The notes: generated by a model not told the origin, from the letters alone. A DNA stretch of 64,000 bases from Psilocybe cubensis (GCA_017499595.2 CM039004.1:3100001-3164000); one strand, 5' to 3'. Shown: positions 2,195 to 41,500, numbered from the stretch's first letter. Translations and numbers: made by a program.

Positions 2195-4906
2195 ATGGCG
2201 ACTACCACAATAACCACCACTGAAATTACTACAGAAATCAAGCCCGACACTAAAACCTTCGCTAAGCAAGAGGCTGGTTTACTTGTGACAAAGGAATTGG
2301 AAAATGCCATTGAAGAATGTAGGAAAAAGGTTGAACGAATTGCAAAAGAATGTCGTGCAAAGAACCGCAAGTTCAGGTACGCTTTTAGGTATTGGTTTCT
2401 CACATGATATCAGCTTCTCATGACGAGCGCTTTCCAGAGATATCGAATTTGATCTCGAGAACGATCAGAACAGATGCCTCTACGGTCTCTTCGTCTTGAA
2501 TGGAGATTCAGTCAACACACCGCCGGCTGATGTACACAGGGTCACTCAGATCTTCGATAACCCCCAATTCTTTGTGGGAGGAGCTGCGGATTCGAACGAC
2601 ATCATCCAAGGAGCATTAGGAGACTGCTGGTTTCTATCTGCTCTGGCCACTGTATCCACGGCTCCAGGCCTGGTAGAAAAGTTCTGCGTCGCTGTACGTT
2701 CCTGGCCCCCTTGCTATTTTTATCTCTTGTCACGGCCTAACTGGGAATCAAATCCAGCGCGACGAAAAAGTCGGCGTATATGGTTTTATCTTCTTCAGAG
2801 ATGATGCTTGGGTTACTGTCATTATCGATGAGTAAGTTCAGCCTTCATACTTTTTTTAAATCCATCTAAACAACCTACAGCATGCTCTACACACGTGTCC
2901 CCAAATACGAGGAGCTTAAAAGTTCCGAGCAAGAACTGTATCACTACGACAAAGATACCTATAACAAGTCCGCAAGGAAAGGTGGGAAATCGTTATACTT
3001 CGCTAAGTCAGGGACTGCAGGCGAAACATGGGTACCTCTGATTGAAAAGGCATATGCAAAGCTCCATGGGTGCTATTCGCATTTATTGGGAGGGCAAGAG
3101 TGCGATGCGATTGAGGACTTAACTGGGTGAGCAGTTACTAAATAATAACAACATGTTGACGCTCATAAAGTGATACATCTAGTGGCGTATCAACCGTATT
3201 ACAGAGCAAGGTACTGTCATTGACATTTCTTTATTACTCCTCCTTTAACGGGATATCCCTTAGGATATATTGGATCCCGATCGTTTCTGGGATGAGGAGC
3301 TTGGTCGCGCCAATAAAGATAGACTGTTCGGATGCTCCTTCAACAATCTGGATGGCACACGCAGTGGCGTGAGTAACGCTAAAGTTCAAGGTCTGGTAGG
3401 AAACCATGCATACTCCGTACTTCGAGCGGTCGAGTGCAATGGGAAAAGATTCGTCGTTGTCCGCAATCCCTGGGGTAAATCTGAATGGACGGGTCGATGG
3501 TCAGACGGTTCCAAAGAATGGACACACGAGTGGCTTGAATATCTACCTCAACTTGGCCATCAGTTTGGAGATGACGGCCAGTTTGTCATGGAATGTAAGT
3601 TATTCGCTGTTACAGCTAACAGACATTAAAAGGTCCATAGACTCGGATTGGCTAGAGAGCTTTGGACAGATTGATCGAACAATTTTATTCGATTCGGATT
3701 GGAGGATGACTTCTCAATGGCTTCAAGTCACTGTACCGCCTCTTCCAGCTGCATGGACATACGGCGATGTATCATGTATGTTAGATTCATACTCAATCGT
3801 CATATATGGATGCTTACCTCTCAATAGTTACCTTTTCACTGGCTAGTCGATCGAACGCCGTGATAGTACTTTCTCAGCTCGATACTCGATATTTCCGTGA
3901 CATATCTGGTAGAGCTTCTTGGACTCTGGACTTCGCCCTCGTCAAGCAAGGCGAAAAAGAGCCTATCGCAGAATCACCACACTCCGACTTTTACCTTCGC
4001 AATGTACACCTAGAAATTGAATTGGAAGCAGGAGATTATATCGTTTACGTTCGCCTGGATAGATCGTTGGATAAAAATGAAGACGATGTTCGTATCCCTT
4101 TACCGGTCTTTACTATCTCAAACCTAATACAATTTCAGGACAAGAAATACGTTGATGAATGGATGCTTAGGAAGATGTCACGCATCATGATGCAGCGTGC
4201 GAAGAGTAATTCGATTGCTTCTAGTGAGTATTTCCTCTCCCCCTCAGGATACACGAATTGAATATTGTCTGTTAGATTTCAAGGCAGAGTCCGTTACCGT
4301 ACTAGTTCAAGGTCGTTAACCTAGAATTATCTAATTTCTTTTTTTTGCAGAGATCAGGCCAAATACCTTCCTACTACATTGGAATCTCTCATTCAACGTG
4401 ATTTGGAAGAGTACGAAAAGAAGAAAAAGGCCGAAGGTGAAGTCGTCACCAAGGTAGTAGAAGAGGTTTCTGAAGACGGCACCGTTACGACCACGACCAC
4501 TACCACAACTACGAAGGTCGAGACAGTCGTTGTTGGAAAAAAGGTGGCCTTGCAAAAGGAATCTCCTCCTGAGAAACCTACGTCCATTCCACTTCCTCCC
4601 ACTACCGTTGATCCTACCCCAACTACAAACGGTATATCAACACCCGCCTTGCCAAATGTGACCCCGGAAGTTCCCAACATTCCTGACACATCGCGCTCTC
4701 GCTATCGCGGTTCCAGTCCGAGGTATGGTGGTAGTTCAGCGACCAAGGGTGAAGATGTACCTAAAGGCAAGGTTGAAATCGACCACGATGACCCGAATAC
4801 AGTATGTGTCGGCCTCCGGGTATATACACATAAGGATGTCCCGACGGTAGTGGTAGGGAGGTTGAAGGTTGACTCTGATCAGAAGGAAGATTCTGAAAAT
4901 TCATGA
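2195..4906 (+). CDS. Calpain-like cysteine protease (peptidase C2), paralog 1, catalytic triad intact; multi-exon
   Basis: QGALGDCWFLSAL (Cys), [21 protein letters not shown] (His), RNPWG (Asn) and WSDGSKEW, followed by a domain III-like region and a C-terminal GLRVYT motif. Exons are joined by short GT-AG introns. Confidence 0.93.
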
Positions 4907-5716: not shown

Positions 5717-8692
5717 ATGAGCCTCTCAGTCTACTCATTACCTGCCCATATTTCCTCCGAGTCCTCAGGTTCTTCACCATTATCTGACAATGTTATCAAT
5801 ACTGCTACGCTCTCCCATTCCATTTATGAACCTCTGACCTCAGGCAAGATGGCACTTGGCCACTATCCTCCTGCACCTAAAGATTCGGAACCTTGGAACA
5901 TCGCGCAGCCAACTCGAAGAAATACGATGACTGATTCTTCTATACTACCAAGTACACCGCCGCCGCCACAAGTTGGATTGATTGTAACCGAGGAGCTCCA
6001 ACAGGCGCTTAAAGATTGTAAGGAGAAAGTAGAACGGATAGCAAAAGAATGCAGGGCAGCAAACAGGAAGTTCCGGTGAGCTCTCCATCGTTCAACGGTT
6101 TATCGTCATTTTAAAAGTGCCTTCATTTACCTTTTATTATCCTAGCGACATCGAATTTGATTTAGAGAACGACACAGTGAGGTGTTTGTACGGCTTAACG
6201 GGCGACAAAACGACCAATCCTCCTGATGTACGAAGAGTGTCCGAAATCTTCGAGGATCCAAAGTTTTTTGTCGGCGCTCCTCACTCGAGTGACATTGTTC
6301 AGGGAAAGCTGGGCAATTGCTGGTTTCTATCCGCACTTGCAACTATGGCGGCCTTCCCAGGTCTGGTAGAGAAATCGTGTATAGGCGTACGTCCTGCATC
6401 TGTTTTACTGTCGGCGCATCAGGATCTAGCAATAGATGATAATATTTGGAATCACGCAGCGCGATCAGGAAGTTGGTGTCTACGGCTTCATATTCTTTAA
6501 AAATAGTCAGTGGGTGAATGTTGTGATTGATGAGTGAGTTTTCTCCCTGAAATTCCATGTTGGCCCAGGTTTTGGCTGCTTCTTACCGTTGTTTCCATCA
6601 GCCAGTTATTCTGGTCTCTTCCCAAGTTCGAAGGTCTTAGCCAAGAGGAGAAATCCCTCTATCATGATGATAAAGACCTCTACAATAGCTTGGCTAGGAA
6701 GGGGGGGAAAGGTCTGTATTTTGCGCGCTCGGGGACCAGCGGAGAGACGTGGGTACCATTGATTGAGAAAGCATATGCCAAACTACATGGCGACTACGCC
6801 TCACTTAATGGGGGAAGAATGAATGAGGGTGTCGAAGATCTTACTGGGCGCGTATAATTACAAAGCTATTGGTCATTGGTTATACTGATATGTATCATTT
6901 CACTGGCAGGGGCATCTCAACCACGTTCAAAGTTTGCGTGAGTAAATTTCACATGATTATCCGTAGCTAAAGGCAACTATGGCCCATATAACAGGATATA
7001 CTTGATCCAGATAAATTCTGGAAGGATGAGTTGCTCTACTCAAACAACTCAGAAACTCATTTGTACGGTGTCTCGTTCCCCGCTTTAACGGAATGGCGAA
7101 GTGGAAATTCTGCAGCGACGGTGGGCGGCCTTTACGGTAGCCATGCTTATTCCATCCTCAGGGTTAAGGAATGTCGTGGGAGGAGGTTTGTGGTCTTGCG
7201 AAATCCCTGGGGTAAAGAGGAGTGGACAGGAGCATGGTCCGACGGCTCCAAAGAATGGAATGGGGATGAAGGCCGTGCGATCCTCACAGAGCTTGACCAC
7301 ATCCTAGGTGACGACGGCGAGTTTGTCATGGAGTGTAAGTATTCCATATCGTCTGTAGAGAACAACCTCCGGCTTTATTGATGCATTGGTGCCTCTATGC
7401 AGACTCAGACTTTCTACAGGTATGGGCCTCAGTTCAGCGGACAATTATATTGGACTCCAGCTGGGTTATGTCGACGTATTGGCTTCGGCTTCCTCCCAGA
7501 TCTCCGCTATGCTCATGGAGTCACGGAGAGGTCGTTTGTACGTTTTTCATTCTTTTTTGTGAGCAACACATTGCCATTCTTAACATGTCATCCCAGTCTA
7601 CTTCGATCTGCCCAAAAGAACAAGCGCAATCATTGCACTTACATCTCTCGACGAACGGTACTTCAAGCATATTACTCACCAGCATCAGTACCACACTCTA
7701 GAGTTTGTACTCTACAGACTTGATAAACAGGAGACGCAAAACCACACATACAGTGGGGCGATCTGTGAGAGAAGCGTAAGCTGTGAGCTCGAATTAGAAG
7801 CTGGTAAATATGCGGTATATGTGAGTCAAGTTATATCACTTACTCCCGTCCCTTTTATTTAATACCGCCCATTCTTTGTTTTCTTTAAAAATGAAGCCGA
7901 GGATTGATCGTTTATACTATGGTGACACAGTGCGTCTTTTAATGAAGTGTGGTCCAATTCTCGGGATTTCATTAAATAAACGCCTGCGTACAGACATACT
8001 TTGAGGATAGCCTGCCTACAATGGACTACCGCAAGTTATCTCGCATGCTGTCCCAGCGAGTTGAGAGCAGAATGATAGCATCCAGTAAGTCAGAAACAGG
8101 GTTATTTTTTACTATCCTGCATTGCATAAATACTCACCGCGGATTTACCACCTATTCACTATTCACGCAGACTATACACTCGGGTACGTGATAAAATGAT
8201 ATGATCCTAGTGCTGCTACTACAGGGCTATACTGATATCATAACAAGGGAGGAGAAGAAATTTCTACCAACCTCGTTGCGTGCGATTATAGAACGAGATT
8301 TACAGTCCCAGATACCCAATAGCGCAGAGAACCCGGCACCAGACACGAACAACCTCACAAAGACTACTACGACTACTACGACTACCACAGTCACTACCGT
8401 AAAGAGGACCGTGGGGACACCCGCCAAACCCAGACCACAGAATGATTCAGCAGCACCATACGACATTTCGCAACACTCCCCTACATTGTTTCCAAAACAC
8501 AACGCTTCAACATCTGAAACTCCTGGTATATCTACCGCAGTCACAGAGGCCCCTGCTTCGGATGCTGCTCACAGCAATTCCATTACGTACGAGGATGAGA
8601 AGCAACTATCCCTGGTTTTAGGACTACGGGTGTATACAAAGAAGGACGCCGTGGCGGTGGTCACTGGTTCCGTCTTAGATATACCTCGGTAG
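5717..8692 (+). CDS. Calpain-like cysteine protease, tandem paralog 2, triad intact; start may be the ATG at 5849
   Basis: [39 protein letters not shown] and WSDGSKEW. Exon layout and C-terminal GLRVYT motif resemble paralog 1. Confidence 0.92.
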
Positions 8693-12342: not shown

Positions 12343-13541
12343 ATCTCTTAGCCCCCTGGTGTGGTGAAGTCGAGCGCATCCAACCGATCCACGATTCCAT
12401 TACAGTGCTAGTCAATCAATATCTTTTTGTACAATATATCTATTCAAACAAAAGACACACATTATTGATGACTATCGGTCTAACCCTCTGATGAATTGAA
12501 GTTCAATTAAACTGATTTGTTTACAGAAAGGTCTAGTACTTGGTCTGCGTGGCTGTTCACTCGGGGAGTTGTTCCCACTTGAATTGGGCGTGTTCAAAGA
12601 GCGCTCAGGACACTTAACATCTTTTTGACCTCGCTTTATAATTAGTGGGTAGACTAACGCTTCTACACCTTTCAGGTTCAAAAACATAACTGTGGACTAG
12701 GAATCACCAGTTAATTTCCTGCCCTGATCGAATGGATCTAGCAAGCCAAAAATTCTGTCCCCGAGATATCCAGAGCGAACGGCCCGTCAGTAAGAATGTC
12801 CTCAGAAGCAAATCACGCAGCAACACACCAGCCAAAGTTCACACTTAATCCATCGATCATTGTCGTGATTTAGCTGATGATTGCTACGCGTGCGTTGGAA
12901 CAGGATTTAGGGAAATCGATTCGGTCACTTGATTCAGGGAAGGCTCCAGAGGGTGGTCGTTAAATGCTCCACAGTTTATAACAATGAATTTCACTCCAGC
13001 GAAAAAACAAAACCTAAAATTTCATGCACTGCTAGTAAGTCTTGAGACCATACCTCGGATTGCAAGTCCAGGCGCCATAAACGCATGATCAAGAGGTCGC
13101 ATGCGAGCAATTGTAACGATAGGATGAAATTAGTCGCTTAGTGGCGATAGGAAAATGACACAATTTAAGCCTCTCGAAGCCGTACGATAGATTTGGGGCA
13201 ACTCAAGTATAAGGAAAAGTGAGAAATGTTCAAAAATGATATTGGTACGCAATGGGAGGAAGTGTACCTTGAAGCGGCACAAGCTCGGCAACAATCGGGT
13301 TTGGCGGCGTCTGAACTTCCATGGTCCCGTGACTTATTTTCTCTTCCGACCGTCGACAGTTCCTCGCTCATCGTCGCTGGCAGTGGCCTCCCCCAACGTC
13401 CACGCCGACCGCGTTTCTTCATCTTCGGCGTAGGAACTCCCAATATCCTACCATATACCAACTCATAACAAGGTACTTTCCAAGAAACATCTTCAGCCAA
13501 CGTCATTCAATGCCCAACATTTTCGTGTTTTCAGTTCCAAA

Positions 13542-16286: not shown

Positions 16287-19200
16287 ATGCGGACGAGACA
16301 GTCACTCTCGCCGTCATCGCCGTCGACTCGAAAGCGGATTCCGACGATACCACCAGTGCCTCGTTCCAAGCCTCCTCTGCCACCCATGGCTACTGTAACG
16401 AAGAAGGTGGTGTTTCCTCATGCCGACCACTGCGATAGCGATGTGAAAGACGAGCTCCTCCCTATGTACGAAGTGTACAGACTGACTGGGGCCAAAACTC
16501 CATATTCGTATTATTTTGCGCGAAGGCCAAGCCTGCAACCGGGATCTGCCATTGGTACAGCGCCTACAGTGAGGGCCCAAAGATACGACGCCGATGACAT
16601 AACTGCCCTGGAGGAATCTGAATCTCGGCGTATGTCATCCATTTCTTCCCTATTGTGCTTTTTTTACGCACGAAATGCCTCCCATATATGTGTTTTGCGA
16701 TGTGATGTTTTATGCTGACGTTTGATTTGGCTTTTGTTCAGGTGCTGCTCGATTGAAGAGGAGGCGTACTATTGGCGACGCCCATAGTATTATTGGGCGC
16801 ATCTCCTCCTACACCTCGTCCTCCTCAACGACCACCAAACCCACTGTCACTACTAGGATCAAACTCCAGGACGCGAAGGAGCAGCGTACGCGGCGACCAC
16901 GGCCATCCACGTACATCGAAGAGACAGAGAACATGAAGCAAACCAAGTCAAACGCAAATTCAAAGGCCCAGGCTCAGGTGCAGGCTCAGAAAAAATCAGA
17001 AAAGGTTCGAAGCCAAAGCCAGGGCCGTTCTCCGATAACGCAGAAACCTGTAGCCGCTGGGCCTACACGGTTACATACGCCAACCCTGCGCACGAATATG
17101 CATATGTCGACGACAAGTGTGCTCCTTTTGCCAAACCTCAACACCGACTCGCTGTGGCTAAACCGGCCCACCAGGCCGCGAGCAAAAACAAACGATGCCC
17201 TGGTACAAGTAAAGGAGAAGGAGAAGGTAGAGAAGGAGGTAGATGGTGTTCGACATGCTTCTGCATCTTCGACGGCTACTTTGGTCCCGAATCCTCCTCT
17301 TCTTCCTCCACCGGACGTCCTGGTTCATGCACAAACAACGAGTCCGCTGGTGGTTCCTGTGCGTCCTGCACGTCCTGCTGAATCGCTGTACTCCAACGAA
17401 TCGACGTTCCGTACGATATGTGCATCTGCTTCAATGCAGGAGAACGACGTGGACGCGTTGCGCGGCCCGACATCAAATCTTCGACCTCAACCACAACCTC
17501 AGACAGGTCCTCAATACCTTCATCCACATGGAGACCATCAGCAACTCAAACAGCTGAACATGGAGAAGCGAAGGTCAAAGCTGCGCTCGCCTTCCGTGGC
17601 GACGTCTGTGTCATTCTACAGCCAGAAGAGTTTCCCTCATCGGCTTCAGCTCCCTACGGATGTCGACACAGAAGAGCTTGCGTGGCTCGTTATCGATGAC
17701 GATGACGACGGCGATGGAAATGTAGGCGATAGTCAAACCGGTCCGGGTATCAAAGATCCAGCATATCTTTCAGCTGACTATACTGCAAACCAGCCACGGG
17801 ATGGAGGGCGCCATCCGTCAAGTAGTAACTTGAGCCTCCTATCTGACGGCAAGTCGACTGGGACAGTGAGATCGCAGAACCGCTCAACACGTACACGGAG
17901 TACCAGACCCAAGACCCGCTCTCGCTCACGCTCGCGCCACCGCTCCGGGAGAGCTGGTGGAAGTAGCAGCAATCGACAGCGGGAAAAACAGCCTCCTACA
18001 CCGTCAATATCACCGTCAGCATGGTCTGCAACCCGCCTCGGACCCTCTGCATCGCGCACGCCATCGATAGCACCCTCCGCGTGGTCCGCACCAATGTCGA
18101 TGTCGATGTCAGCACGGTCTGTTCGCACAGTCGGATCTCGCGCACATTCGGTGGCGCCGTCGGCATGGTCGAGGGCGAAATCTGACTCGCTGTCGATCGC
18201 TCGTTCAAACTTCACAGCCACATCTCGGTCGACGGCAACGTCGAGATCCACGTCGACGACGACGTCAGGATGGGCGCGCAGGGATATTACAGAGGTACAG
18301 GAGGATATGAAGTCGTTCCTCGATATGTCAGAGGATTCGAGGTGGCATTTTTCTTCCTCCTCTTCGTCTTCGTCTTCGTCATCGGCTGCGTCTGTGGTCT
18401 CTGCTTCGCCGTCTTCGTGCTCTTCACCAGAAGTGGGGTGTGGGCCCGTGCCGGAAATATCGGTATCTGTGCCAGTACCTGCTGGGTCCTCACCTGGTTT
18501 AGTTGAGGGTAAGGACATTACAGGATCAGCGAGCGAAGTGAAAGAGACGGCGAGAAGAAGGTGGCAAGATAGGGAGTCGACAATCCTTCCTCAATCGCGG
18601 AACGCTAGTCCAACGCAGCAGAGCATCGACCTGGATTTCGCTGACGACATGCGGTACAGCCCGAGCCTAAACCCAACGCTGGCGTATATCGTATTCGGGC
18701 CGGAAGATGATGGTGTGGGCGTCAACCTTGCAGAGGAGTCACTGTCGCTCTCGCCTGTCCTGATACCTCCGTCCTCACCCTCGCTTTCTCATAAGTTGAA
18801 TCCACCGATGATTCAATCTAGCACGGCGTCAACATCCTCGTCGACGGCCGTTGCTTCGAGCTCGGATGTCCACTTTGACAATGGTTCTGGAAAGGGGGCT
18901 GTAGCTGTCACAGGACCCTCGAGTTGGGGTGAAAAAGAAGAGGAAATTTGCGAGGATTACGATTATGGTGTGGCGGTCGACGTGTTGGTGGATCATCAGC
19001 ACGAGCGTAAACGTAGTCCCCATTCCCATCCGCGTTCGCAGCGCCGGCACCGGCGACATGGATCGCACAAATCGCTTGCGAACAAAGACGATACGAGTGA
19101 AGTTGTTGTGGTTGTCGTGGAGGAGAAAGAGGGCATAGTCCACTTGATGGATGCTACGGAGGGCCAGAAGGACATTGAGGTGGTATTGGGAGCAAACGAA

Positions 19201-20016
19201 ATGATTGACGTATGGAATGAGAAGGAGAAGTCGGAGAAGGAGAACCTGAAGCCACACAGGAGTTCGAATTCAGGTTTGGGTCCTGCTTCAAAGTCCGGAG
19301 CGCCTTCACCCGAGGGTAGGCGGTCGCAATCGAGGGCACGGGCTCGAGCTGGCAGCAGAGCCCGGAATGAGGATGGTGGTGCTGTAGCCTCGCGGAACAG
19401 TCGTCATTCTCAGCATGGCAGTGGCCACGGTTCGATTAGGTCCAACATTCCTCCCAGCCACGCGGCACCACCTGCACATCTTCCCCGCCCATACATTAAC
19501 TCGAAATCCAGTAAAAATGTGGGTGGTGGTTCGGGCACGCGGATGCAGGCGCGGAGCGTGCGTGCGGTACGGAAGAAGACTTCTGCGCGCACACTGAGGA
19601 AGGACTTTGGGAGTCGCAATATCGGTGTTGGTGTTACGGGTATTGTCGGTGTCGATTCAGGCGTACATGTGGATGTGGACGTCGGGTTAGGTTCAGGAGG
19701 AGGCCTTGGCGCTGTTGGCGTGTTGGACCCACGACTGCAGCCCGAGTATTATAACCACAGCGTCGGTGCGGGTGTCAGGACGAGTACAAACGCAACAGCA
19801 TCAAATACAAGTATGCCTATGAATGTAAGTGCAAACAACAGAGCACGAGCACGAGCGAGTCTACAGAAGAAGCGAGGGCTGGATGACGTCAGAGACAGCC
19901 GTCCGGTAATGGCCAGCCACAACCACGCAGAGAGGGAGGAGAAGAAGAATAAAGACAAGAAGTCGAAATCGCTGTTTAATTTCCTTCATGTAGCCAGCTT
20001 GTTTGCGAGGGTTTGA
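16287..20016 (+). CDS. Large Ser/Arg/Pro-rich, likely disordered hypothetical protein (~1200 aa)
   Basis: Exon 1 from 16287, intron ~16630-16741, then a 1087-codon open frame. No recognisable domain. Confidence 0.75.
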
Positions 20017-35666: not shown

Positions 35667-38158
35667 CTAGCGTGATTTCGAAATAAAACACTGAAGCATG
35701 CTTGAAGCGAAAGAAAATGCACGAATCGAGTCGTATTGGTTCTTCTCAGAGCCAAAGATCCCAATTCCCAACGGCGCATCTGCAAATACAAACTGCTCAG
35801 ACCTCTTCTTCTCGAGGAATCGGCGAAAAGACGGCCTGTTGTGGTACAGCTTATACGAAGGACTCAGAGATCTCTGGTACGACAGCGTTTGTAAGAAGCT
35901 ATACGCCCAACTGCGGCGATGACGCAGAGCCCTCGTTCTGTTGCGCATGTACGGTAAGCTCCCACAAATGAACTGCAGAGTGCTTGTAGCAGCGCCCAAA
36001 AATAAGCCGTGGCCATGTATGGTGCCATCGTCCCTTTGCCCTGAAGCGATCCTGTCGTATAAGATATCACAGATAAATCTGATAAGCACTGGTGTCCACT
36101 CATGTCGGTTCCGTGAGATGATCCATCCCAGTAGCATCGTGTCCCTGGGTGTTCTCAGAAATTTTCCAAAGGATGGAAAGCGGAAGGATGTAGAGGATAT
36201 GTCGAGCGAATCCTGCATTACTACACTATCGAGTGTTAACAGCGTCGCAAGCAGGAAGGAGATATGCAAATGTGGGATATTCGGTCCTAATTCTGACTGT
36301 ACACGCTGTTTAAGTGATGCTGTTTCCACATCTGCGAATTGAGATATCTCTGGTATATCCCAATTCTGAAAATAGATCAAATTTACCCTGAATCTGCGAT
36401 CAAGTTTAAAGCACGTACATTTTTTAGGTTGGAAAGAAACTCGATGTATTGTGCAATAAAATTAGTTTCCGTTCGTAGATTTCCCCTTTCATGCATATTG
36501 CAAAGCTCCAGGCAGTGATCGAGTGAGAGGCTCCTAGTTTCTGTTATGAGATAGTCATTTGGGTGTGCAAGAGGCAGATGATGGAATAGTCGATCGAAAA
36601 CGGTCCAAATATCATGCCTTTTTATTCCTAAAATACCATCAGATTTTTATCCCAGCTTCATAATAACCAGATTTCCTACCAGCAGATATGTGACTGAACG
36701 ACAGCTGAGCAAAAAAGGCATGCATATTGGGTGGATCAATATACAAATCCCTCGACCGGCTCTTATCGACTAGATAGTCCTTCAACGACGCGTGCAAAAT
36801 TCGGATCCACGGCGCACGCGAAATCTGGCCCAAAGGGCCCCTCACGCCAACCCAATCATCCAGCGATACAAGCGAAGCAAGGTTGTGCAGCAAAACCTGC
36901 GCATCGCCTGTCTCGAGAGATAGAAAGGCTTCTACAAAGCTCACTGAAACTTCGTCGTAGAAGCCGGGAGGGCAGAAGGTGACGAACGCGAGAATTTTCA
37001 GTATTAGATCCACTTCTTCGACTCCCATCAGGATATGACGGTACAGCGCGTCGAGCTCGGCGAACGGATTGTCGCCTGCCATGGTGGGCCGTACGCCAAG
37101 CACAATCTCCAGTCTATGCGTCGGACGATGGCGAGATGACTCGACATATTTCACCACCGTTGACGCATAAATAAACTGGCCTGAGGACCGCTCTACAAGG
37201 GTAGTGATTTGACTCGGCGAGGGCCACCCTTCAGGGATATGCGCCCGACGGCAATGCTGTGACTTGATCTTGCAAAAGCTGTCCACCAAGAAATATTCAA
37301 TGTCCTCTCGCGATTGATAGTCGTCATCCAGCGCGACTATTGTCAACTCCTCAGGCCCCTTCAAACTGAATGCAGATGATATTGCCACTTCCGGGCGGCT
37401 TGCTAAGAGAATTTTCAGCGGGATGGATTCATCCTGGAGCACACGAAATGCGGCGTAGACAATTCTGGCTTGAACTTTAGAGTCTTCGCATTCATCCAAG
37501 CCATCGATGATAATCACGATATTGTGGTCGAATGTACATCCATTCTGGAGGAGCTGGAGAAGAGGGCCTTTAATGAGTGCAGTGAATTGTGACTCGAACG
37601 ATCGAGTCACAACTAGAGGATCATTCTCGAATACCTGCACCACGCAAGCTCGAAACACAGGCGGAAGCTTCACCGCCAACTGGTACGCCAGCGTCGGAAC
37701 AAGAAACCTGGCCGTTCCTCGATGCGGGTCATCCCTTGCAAAAAAGAAACTAGCGATACACCCATTCCGGCTATCCAGCATCTCCGCGATTGTTTGTGCA
37801 ATTGCAGACTTTCCAGCGCCCGCTGCGCCGTAGAGCCACAAGAAAACTGAATCGCGGTAGAGATGATCTAGTCCGTTGATCCAGTTCATGATCTTTTTGA
37901 TGATGGTAACTCGTGTGTTGGGATGGCATTTCGGTGGATCGAAGCGTTCTCCAGAGTCGTGAAATGCTACGTGGGCAACGTGATTCTGTAAGCGCTCGAA
38001 TCCCACTATCGCCGTTAGGCCATGCGTTATCAGCTTATGACTCCAGTCCGATATGAAGACGATTCTTTCGCACCTGAGATTGGATTGAACAGTTGAACAT
38101 GATGGGTGCTGAAAGTCCCATTGGTAATGACAACGTTGTTCGCCCCTGCAAATGACAT
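35667..38158 (-). CDS. NACHT/STAND NTPase (fungal NLR-like) with a short N-terminal peptide
   Basis: Exon 1 38158..38074 (MSFAGANNVVITNGTFSTHHVQLFNPIS), intron 38073..38006, then AFHDSGERFDPPKCHPNTR, Walker A GAAGAGKS, Walker B IIIDGLDEC, ASRPE, GQFIYASTVVKY, NPFAELDALY and ILHASLKDYL. Two more introns lead to a non-repeat C-terminal region. Confidence 0.88.
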
Positions 38159-38532
38159 TACCGAACGTCGATGTAGTTGGGGTCAAAAAGAGCAGTGTAT
38201 GAAAAAAGTCCAACATTGAACTTGATCATGAGCGTATCAACAAAAGAGAATGCTGAACCACGCCTGTCACTAGCACTGATCGTCCCGAATACACCGCAAT
38301 CATCGCCACTTCTAAACTTGAGCCACAGCGATATCTAAACTTACGTATTACACAGCAAGAGGACACTGCATAACTAGTCACCGATTACTACTACAATTAT
38401 CTAGTCTAAATAATATATGAAAACCATAAAGCGCTTATTCTGCGGTATCAAACTGTGATGTAGTAAAAGTCCCATGAAAAAATGTACTCGAAATGTACTC
38501 CTGGATACGAAAAACCAAAATCAATGAATGAT

Positions 38533-41500
38533 TTAATACCCACCAAGAGCAGGTCCGGTCGAGGCTCCTGGAGGAGATTTTAATCTACCAGTGATGACTG
38601 CAGGCGCTATCTTTTTTGTGTACACTTTCAAGCCAATCACAATCGAGTTGTCGTCCTCAAGGACATCAGTCGGAAGTGGCATGGAGCCACCGATAGGCAA
38701 CAGTGGTGGAGAAAGCGGGGCTAGATCCAGAGGGGGAGGGGGAGGAAGGAGTCCAGGCGGGAACGGCGTGATCTTCCCAGGGCTCAGAGGAGGGGAGCCC
38801 GGGGGGATCCCAGCCCATCCAGGTTCCATGGGATACGTTCCATTAGGCGCACGTCCGTATCCTTTACCGTTTGGCATATGGCCCGCAGTGATGTTGTTTA
38901 CACCCTTTGAGCCACCGCGTACTGGGCGCTCTGATGCTGGCTCATTGGCGCTGGAGGAGCCGCCGTTCTTGCTCACCACAGTCGTCGTCGTCGTAGTCGT
39001 GGTGACAGTTACACTCTCACCTGGTTTTACCTCCCCGGCGTATGTCTTGATGGCATCAATGGCTGCCTTGTCCGATTTCACCTGCTGGCTTGCAAGCACA
39101 GCAGATGCCGGAGTTGGAAGAAGCTCTGGACTGAAGGGAGTTAGGCAAGGGAGCTCACAACAATATGAGTACCTACTTTGGTTTATAATCTGGAGACGCA
39201 TTTAGTTTTTCAATGCTGGTAGAAGGTGTTGGCAGCACTCACTTGATGCAATTGATTGACCTTTGGCGCGTTCAGTCATGATACGATTGAGTTTCCGTCT
39301 GTCCCATCCGGAAGCAAGGCCGTTCCTGAAATAGTCCTTTGAGAGTATTGGCCTACTGAAAAGATCCCAAGTACGAAAACCTACCTTGTCTCGAACGGGA
39401 GCGGGATCAATTCTTGCCTGATGTCCTTTAACATAAATTCACTGGAAAAGAAATAAAAGGGCGTCACCAGAATAATGTAATTCCCAGCTTGCAAATCCAT
39501 TTCTACACTGACTGATCTGCTGGCAAAGAACGAATATGAAGATTGGGCAATAGGCTCGGTCTCGCCTTCTTTGGCGAGTAAAAAGTCAAGATTCCAAAGG
39601 CAAGGACCGGATATGTCCTTGAAATAACGTGTGTTGTACTTGGACAGCACAATAATCACGGGTGAGGCGGCTGGTAGAGAGAACGAGACTATATAGCACG
39701 TTGAATGGCAATATTCTGATATCATGGAAAGGGCTTACAGTTGATATCACCGTACGAAAAGGCTTTCATGTTGGGGAACGGTAACGAGACGTGCAACCAT
39801 TGGGAAGACATGACCCACGAGTCATCAAATATGAGTGTCCTTTGTACCTCTTGCCATATGTTCAAGAAATCTTTATCTGGAATTCATAGTAGGCAACTGA
39901 ATATCCACTAATAGAAAGAAATCAACTCACATTCCATGACAAACTGCCCTTTCCCTCCAAAAGAATGGCCGAGCTCAGGAAGAATCTCTAACCATTCCTT
40001 GGTCCATTCTTTGGATCCATCTGACCATGGTCCATCCCAGCCAGCCGTACCCCATGGATCGCGCAGCACCACGAATCGCTTGCCCCTGATCTCTACGGCT
40101 TTGACAACGGAGTGGGAAAGATTTCCAACGAGACCATCCACTGAAGCATTTCTGACACCACTGCGGAACCCATCGAGGGTCTTGAACCAGCAACCAAAGA
40201 GTCGGTCTTCATTAGCTTTGACCAGTTCATCGTGCCAAAATTTGTCGTGATTCAAGATATCCTGTCATGCATATTGTCCCATGCGCGACAGAGAAACACA
40301 TTCGAATAAAAAATTCAGCTGAAGAATCAGTCGCTTTCCATAGTGCAATAATCTTGACATGCACACCTTGGTTAATATTAGATTCGAAACACCACTTATG
40401 ACAATCAAGAAATGAGATGAGGTACACCAGGCTGCTACATTTTAAGCAGACGTACCCTGTCATGTCTTCGATAGCATCTGAAGTCCGACCGTACATCACT
40501 GAAGCGTAATCGCCATGAACCTTAGCATACGCCTTTTCAACCAACGGGACCCAGGTCTCTCCATCTGTAGCAGGGCGAGAGAAGTACAGGGAATCGGATC
40601 CTTGCCTCGCAGTCTTGTTATAGTTTTCTTTCTCGAAGTGGTATAGTTCTTTCTCCGAATGTGATAGCTGTTCGTACTTTGGAACACGGGTGAACAGGAG
40701 GCTGATCCAGAGGAGGATGAGTGATGAGTTCGATTTCTGTACAAACTGGGGTTACTTACTCGTCGACGATGACTGGAACCCAGTAGCAATCTCTGTAAAA
40801 CAAGAAACCGTATATCCCAACCTCTTCGTCTCTCTAGATCAAAAGATGACGATACATATGAGTGAATAGAGAGAGCGCTGGCAAAACAAGAAACGACGTA
40901 CAGCGACACATAGATTGTCAATCAATCTCCGAACGGATGTCATGCTCGACAGAGCCGACACCAGATAACAATCTTCCACCGCGCCCTGTATAATTTCTGC
41001 TGATTTGCTTGTTCCAGTGTAGAAAACAGGGTTGGTAAACAATTCCGGTACGCGTCGAACATCTGCAACCTGGAATATATTGTTGTCCCCCAAATTGTGG
41101 AGGCATAGATGGCGGTCATTTTCCAAATCAAAGTCAACATCCCTGATCGATGGGAAAGCGGTGACCAATTGCCATCAATACTTGTTTTCATACGACGATC
41201 ATGCCCACCTGAACTTCCTGTTCTTCGCCCGACACTGTGCGGCTATTCGAAGGACGCTTGCTTTACACTCTTCGTATGCCTGCTTCATGCCTTCCGTGAT
41301 CGAGACACCGAGCTGCTGCTGCGCGTATGACACCGTGTTCACCGTCGAAGCGTTTACCTTCGGCTTTGCTCTCGAAGTGCCGTCTGGACTGACATTTCGA
41401 GACTTCATGGGTCCTCCGTACCCATTCGCACCTTGAAGAGGGGGCGGTGGTGGCTGCGAATAGGGGGGATACTGTGCCGGATATCCCTGAGCTGGGTAGT

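Follow-up and report, generated by a model that had tools for sequence, protein, structure and literature searches.

The 64,000-nucleotide stretch CM039004.1:3100001-3164000 (the window) carries on its minus strand a predicted four-exon gene for a 772-amino-acid (aa) NTPase of the STAND/NOD-like receptor (NLR) type (NPHP3_N/NACHT) of Agaricales; the host is an agaric related to Psilocybe, Hypholoma, and Galerina. The four exons join into 772 codons with no internal stop (the table below gives the coordinates). The first exon opens at an ATG at 38158-38156 and encodes 28 aa, MSFAGANNVVITNGTFSTHHVQLFNPIS, plus one base. Its donor GT at 38073-38072 (GTGCGA) is followed by a branch-type site, CTAAC, at 38018-38014 and an acceptor AG at 38007-38006; the split codon, G/TG, reads Val and leads into GFERLQ...HDSGERFDPPKCHPNTR, in frame with the long NACHT open reading frame (ORF). 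The preliminary description of this locus had stated that the ORF track misses an ATG at 38158 whose exon splices from a GT at 38073 to an AG at 38006 in frame into the NACHT domain, and all of these coordinates hold.

The ATG is preceded, 8 codons upstream, by an in-frame TGA, and there is therefore no upstream extension in that frame; if the exon 1 donor is read through, the frame stops at a TGA at 38032-38030. Five in-frame GT..AG pairs are available at the exon 1/exon 2 boundary, of which the 38073-38006 pair is the sole one with a CTAAC site and with its junction immediately before GFERLQ, as in homologues. A point against this choice is that two of the remaining four pairs likewise preserve the motif carried by the exon. 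A profile made from the first 26 residues of 19 annotated Psilocybe cyanescens paralogue N-termini scored the exon 1 piece at 24.4 bits (E = 2.2e-6), which ranks first of 2485 six-frame pieces (108,301 aa), with the runner-up at 8.5 bits, and tblastn with P0006, the closest homologue, recovered exon 1 with 10 of 18 residues identical. The collection's own call at the locus, P0124, is a 416-aa ORF-style product that starts at MNWINGL and lacks exon 1. The Met of MNWINGL is the first in-frame Met of exon 2, and a start there removes residues corresponding to C53, T57, and R58 of P0006, which are invariant in 65 homologues. From these sequence comparisons, it is very probable that the gene model with the first exon (start ATG 38158) and its motif are real. 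Contigs from three sequencing runs (X1-X3) span the locus contiguously, intron 1 included, with no joints; because long contigs span the intron without a joint, the runs were taken as DNA of another strain or haplotype. A fourth run, guessed to be RNA (X4), spans 38479-38600 only, a stretch that does not include the splice junction.

Features of the NLR gene in the window, with position, strand, and evidence
Feature	Position	Strand	Evidence
Exon 1, N-terminal tail	38074..38158	-	Direct reading, translation, subfamily profile, tblastn with P0006
Motif core F-A-G-A-N-N-V-V-I-T-N-G-T-F, residues 3-16: strand, N-G turn, strand (predicted)	38111..38152	-	Pattern match, homologue columns
Upstream in-frame TGA	38183..38185	-	Sequence context; six-frame piece starts at 38182
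Intron 1, 68 nt, GTGCGA...CTAAC...AG	38006..38073	-	Position agrees with the pre-GFERLQ junction of P. cyanescens models
Exon 2: conserved lead GFERLQ...HDSGERFDPPKCHPNTR, NPHP3_N/NACHT NTPase, winged-helix/helical part	36680..38005	-	Pfam; 60% identity to P0006 over 447 columns
Walker A P-loop GAAGAGKS	37806..37829	-	Pattern match; G86, A88, G89, G91, and K92 invariant in 65 homologues
Intron 2, 52 nt, GTAGGA...TTTTAG	36628..36679	-	GT..AG
Exon 3	36419..36627	-	tblastn high-scoring segment pair to P0006 residues 471-530
Intron 3, 53 nt, GTACGT...TTTCAG	36366..36418	-	GT..AG
Exon 4 and stop codon (35669-35667): helical C-terminal region	35667..36365	-	tblastn high-scoring segment pair to P0006 residues 530-758, 26% identity

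Pfam identified NPHP3_N (E = 4.2e-27; score 95.8, cut-off 24.8 bits) and NACHT (E = 6.2e-07) in exon 2, and no Pfam family or repeat family matched the C-terminal region encoded by exon 4. The STAND fold was tested on P0006 (812 aa), the 60%-identical homologue serving as a stand-in for the window protein. AlphaFold2, given a 65-sequence alignment, returned a model with a mean predicted local distance difference test (pLDDT) score of 80.3 that shows a STAND NTPase with a helical C-terminal half, and a Foldseek search with this model gave 78 matches at E<=0.001, the best being Apaf-1, MalT, CED-4, Avs3, and NOD2. Sequence homologues at E<=0.001 numbered 928 in the set labeled "longer" and 4841 in the set labeled "near," each among 8000 scored candidates; all of the named ones are from Agaricales, and the best, with 60 to 62% identity, are from Psilocybe cyanescens. 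Only about 45 aa lie ahead of the NPHP3_N/NACHT module, in line with the earlier statement that the protein has no enzymatic or pore-forming N-terminal effector domain. The X1-X3 contigs differ from the window gene at 58 positions, and among the 40 differences listed, 29 are synonymous, 10 are nonsynonymous, and 1 is intronic. The sole listed difference in exon 1 (38117) changes GGG to GGC and is synonymous. The excess of synonymous differences among those listed points to purifying selection, and the locus is apparently a functional gene under such selection. Within 37732-37782, all three DNA runs have contig breaks at 37753-37761, immediately 3' of the Walker A codons, and X1 has short alternative contigs there; those samples may be heterozygous or carry a repeat at this point.

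The motif starts at the third residue of the protein, and the NACHT lead follows from about residue 30. The pattern F-x-G-A-x-N-x-x-I-x-x-G-x-F has a single match in the six-frame translation of the window. As had been proposed, peptides of this kind occur in agaricomycete NACHT proteins; profiles and alignments found them to be common at the N-termini of agaric NACHT proteins. For instance, a GG-seeded profile scored at least 10 bits in 58 of the 120 "longer" homologues listed, with the motif starting within the first 22 residues in 52 of the 58, although both counts are descriptive because the profile was built from 51 of the same "longer" proteins. Counting with a loose pattern gave 70 of 96 short N-termini but included evident false matches, and the profile counts were preferred. 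The consensus of the 65 homologues retains M-x-M-F...I-x-G-G-T-F at about 33% overall identity. The window core, N-V-V-I-T-N-G-T-F, has T-N-G where the family has x-G-G; its tail shares a subfamily variant, I-x-N-[GS]-T-F as opposed to I-x-G-G-T-F, with no G[DN] bigram. Across subfamilies, the turn position between the two short hydrophobic strands holds turn-forming pairs (GG, NG, NS, DS, and TG). A protein atlas search with residues 1-30 of the homologue P0141 gave no usable match. Four of the six later motif starts are at residues 87, 343, 710, and 984. The latter two belong to very long models with an internal motif copy, P0003 (710 of 1517 residues) and P0120 (984 of 1687), whose sequences suggest that annotation has fused two tandem NLR genes in each; the internal copies in turn point to possible tandem arrays of this NLR family.

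The peptide is also conserved in close paralogues. The motif is present in 19 of the 36 closest P. cyanescens paralogue models; another 14 open with a MLMQGSTIGGFERLQ-like sequence, and the remaining 3 are truncated or otherwise different. Three models, P0142, P0144, and P0153, hold both the motif and the MLMQ segment. Because these three carry both, the MLMQ segment is best read as a retained intron, and the 14 motif-less models (P0129-P0131, P0133, P0135-P0140, P0147, P0148, P0152, and P0159) appear to begin at a Met inside intron 1, the three models that hold both having retained that intron.

A motif family of this kind has been published. Wojciechowski et al. 2022 (PMC9815663) propose amyloid signaling for this motif class, on in silico evidence only, and propose the motif as a basidiomycete variety of HRAM. 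They describe an 18-aa motif common to 26 short NACHT N-termini and two MLKL-like C-termini of Moniliophthora roreri, a comparable case in Fibularhizoctonia, and some proteins in which the motif sits between MLKL-like and NACHT domains. The alignment of their cluster ESK86804 includes P0006 (PPQ91639.1, with an identical N-terminus), P0092 (PPQ89427.1), and P0036 (KJA25138.1), and the three share alignment columns with ESK86804.1, for which residues 1-18 have an NLR05/NLR22 call. The published calls are NLR05/NLR22 at 1-16 for PPQ89427.1 and at 3-20 for KJA25138.1. The "amyloid-like" motifs NLR05/08/22/29 are present in a majority of the cluster members. Of 490 counted cluster rows in S1 Table, 335 (219 + 66 + 36 + 14) have a motif call and 155 are scored "noasm." Homology to P0006 (60% identity) places the window protein in cluster ESK86804, and its tail, by sequence likeness, is a diverged version of the N-terminal motif (NLR05/08/22/29) by which that cluster is defined. 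As such, the tail would be one more, divergent member of a published motif family and not a new system. The published family (NLR05/08/22/29/44) and the window protein are alike in having a short (<100 aa) N-terminus before NACHT with the motif at its extreme end, the same lead-in to HDS-x-ER..PP-x-CHP-x-TR, the same I-x-G-G-T-F core columns, and many paralogues per genome with no adjacent partner. The window copy differs, however, in having T-N-G for x-G-G and no G[DN], and its closest homologue falls below the motif thresholds of that paper.

In the AlphaFold2 model of P0006, residues 1-24 are coil with a pLDDT of <50, compared to >90 for the NACHT core; because of this, docking of the P0006 tail on the rest of the protein is not expected from the model. 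Ascomycete pairs such as NWD2/HET-S (HRAM, sigma, PP, and PUASM motifs) have a short motif N-terminal to NACHT, and by the logic proposed for them, oligomerization of the receptor nucleates a cross-beta fold. The window protein resembles them in the short motif N-terminal to its NACHT domain. However, the NWD2/HET-S-type pairs have a matching C-terminal motif on an adjacent effector (within about 20 kb) and none is found in the window, and the ascomycete pairs have few copies per genome whereas the agaric motif has dozens. Amyloid-type signaling by the tail is the best single mechanism, and we propose it tentatively. Exon 1 would provide a flexible tail of about 20 aa, consisting of a hydrophobic strand, an N-G turn, and a second hydrophobic strand, followed by an H/Q-rich linker. 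The tail would be unstructured in the resting monomer; ligand-driven oligomerization of NACHT would gather several tails, which would then fold cooperatively into a stacked beta-arch (amyloid-like) nucleus. This nucleus would recruit or template a protein with the same motif encoded elsewhere in the genome, for which the literature points to MLKL/HeLo-like executioners as candidates, and many paralogous sensors might feed few shared partners. A complex prediction with four copies of P0006 residues 1-32, made with the alignment unused, returned no answer (score 0.01, mark 0.32).

The preliminary description had gone further and inferred that this NLR signals by amyloid nucleation. The part that stands is that the literature proposes such signaling for the motif class (PMC9815663); for this particular NLR, such signaling is a proposal, and several points weigh against it. 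PPQ91639.1 (P0006) is itself scored "noasm" in S1 Table of that paper. Its Table 1 gives 0 neighboring and 0 effector-side copies for NLR05/08/22/29/44, and its S3 Table lists pairs for NLR07/12/13/28/32 only. ArchCandy passes 0.28 of NLR05 and approximately 0.53 to 0.55 of NLR08/22/29, the range across the whole motif group being 0.00 to 0.55 (PMC9815663). Of the HRAM-like features named in that paper (a run of three hydrophobic residues with a C-terminal G[DN] bigram after it), V-V-I is present, but no G-D or G-N comes after it within the 28 residues of exon 1. The GG-seeded profile gives the window copy 8.2 bits (E = 0.17; still the top of the 2485 pieces, the next scoring 6.9) and has no match in P0006. 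A search for a partner with the same motif had also been suggested; the profile search, confined to the six frames of the 64-kb window, gave no second copy, nor did the six-frame pattern (next-best profile scores, 6.9 and 8.5 bits), and none of the 129 window ORFs of >=110 aa belongs to an effector-type family (HeLo, MLKL, Goodbye, SesA/B, patatin, or PNP_UDP). Pfam returned 0 families at E<=10 for the 28-aa peptide, with no prion-forming-domain family such as HET-s, sigma, or PP, and only NTPase-type families with no prion-domain family for full-length P0006 and P0092. A low-sensitivity word search of short proteins (30 to 448 aa) with the N-terminal 40 aa of P0092 gave only two truncated NLRs among four candidates. 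Finally, a full-text literature search on amyloid motifs of basidiomycete NLRs returned no paper beyond PMC9815663 and no experiment on the motif class, and the available portion of a 2023 review citing that paper adds nothing further on basidiomycete motifs.

Some of the same observations fit other readings of the tail. One is that the tail is self-contained and nontemplating, so that N-terminal hairpins assemble together after NACHT oligomerization with no separate same-motif protein; the product could be an interface within the oligomer, a beta structure active on membranes, or a peptide onto which a folded adaptor docks. Such a tail agrees with the dozens of paralogues per genome that share one consensus, the effector-side count of 0 in the published Table 1 (PMC9815663), the window without a partner, the extreme N-terminal position in 52 of the 58 scored homologues, and a tail that is predicted to be free in the P0006 monomer. 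However, matching C-terminal motifs do exist on the two MLKL-like proteins of M. roreri and in Fibularhizoctonia (PMC9815663), and a stretch of about 15 ordered residues is short for building a pore or a stable interface. On balance, we consider a self-contained tail somewhat unlikely. Since this is a very large agaric NLR family without an effector domain and, in most genomes, without a detectable partner, a bolder form can be considered, in which the tails of oligomerized receptors would themselves pile up into a cross-beta assembly or a beta-barrel with a direct effect, either on membranes or as a signal that propagates itself. We hold such direct output to be improbable; under it, the N-G/N-S subfamily may be a functional variant overlooked by the published motif models. 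The MADA motif of plant coiled-coil NLRs is a short conserved motif at the extreme N-terminus of many paralogous NLRs that acts after oligomerization without a separate effector domain. A direct-output tail could be likened to it as a beta-type counterpart, by analogy only, because MADA is an alpha-helix within a folded coiled-coil domain whereas the window tail would be a beta-type peptide with a Gly/Asn turn on a disordered linker.

It is also conceivable, though unlikely, that the exon is used and its motif copy is decaying or functionally neutral, the subfamily having drifted from G-G to N-G/N-S and lost G[DN]. The "noasm" score of P0006, shared by 155 of the 490 counted cluster rows (PMC9815663), would be expected then, as would the weak score with the GG-seeded profile. 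Decay is harder to reconcile with a variant that is kept in all 19 motif-bearing models of the 36 closest in P. cyanescens and in the window at about 60% overall identity (24.4 bits), with the synonymous nature of the sole listed exon 1 polymorphism, and with the preservation of turn-forming residues. A much less probable alternative is that exon 1 lies outside the mature message and translation begins elsewhere, for example at the MNWINGL Met of the 416-aa call. The donor GTGCGA is indeed not the commonest fungal form (consensus GTRNGT), and 14 of the 36 close paralogue models lack the exon; those 14, however, start at a Met within the stretch seen as a retained intron in P0142, P0144, and P0153, an internal start loses invariant residues, and exon 1 has significant homology to annotated N-termini. 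The last alternative concerns the calpain-like protease gene directly upstream, at approximately 41174-38536 on the same strand, which stops 378 bp short of the NLR start codon and whose conserved tail of about 25 aa follows a long Pro/Thr-rich, low-complexity linker, the layout of an effector-side amyloid motif. That this calpain is the effector is barely credible: it adjoins the NLR and its tail is conserved in 111 clusters of a representative library, but in shuffle tests none of the three calpain tails resembles the NLR tail significantly (p = 0.27, 0.75, and 0.84), the tail is absent from the best 15 pieces with the GG-seeded profile and the best 6 with the subfamily profile, two further calpain paralogues of the window bear the same tail without a neighboring NLR, and none of the 111 profile matches is an N-terminal match in an NLR-like protein. 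By the shuffle test, the paralogues, and the profile matches, the calpain tail is a feature of the calpain family and was rejected as an NLR partner.

The three Peptidase_C2 genes of the window share an end of about 25 aa, ..N-S-V-x-V-G-L-R-V-Y-T-x-K-x-x-P-x-V-V-x-G-R-L-K, at 38536-38682 (-), 4757-4903 (+), and 8543-8689 (+). At E<=0.001, a profile of the three tails matched 111 representative proteins, mostly near the C-terminal end and many of them short pieces, and 15 of the matches reached E<=1e-10; the three long fungal matches belong to Peptidase_C2 and end in the motif, and two other long matches are unrelated repeats. Two full-length matches were scanned and gave no Pfam family besides Peptidase_C2, and because of this the tail appears to fall under no Pfam family. 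Besides the three calpain-like genes, the neighbors among the 129 ORFs include DAP3, SH3, DJ-1, Opi1, two GATA factors, a C2H2 factor, and others. An uninterrupted open frame of 1096 aa lies at 16726-20013 (+), with no Pfam family at E<=0.001. A degenerate NLR lead fragment (…AFPESSDRIDFPKSCSNARVAII*…) with an in-frame stop was found at 12849-12950 (-) by tblastn with P0006 (E = 1.4e-4); from its sequence, it is probably an NLR pseudogene remnant.

The locus alone leaves existing knowledge unchanged, and the support for amyloid signaling in basidiomycete NLRs is computational only. Motif censuses probably undercount, because the motif exon is lost by ORF-style calling and from 14 of the 36 public models of the closest paralogues. 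What the locus adds is a clean, apparently functional gene with a motif variant whose closest homologue is scored negative by the published profiles, and the peptide is short enough for synthesis and assay.

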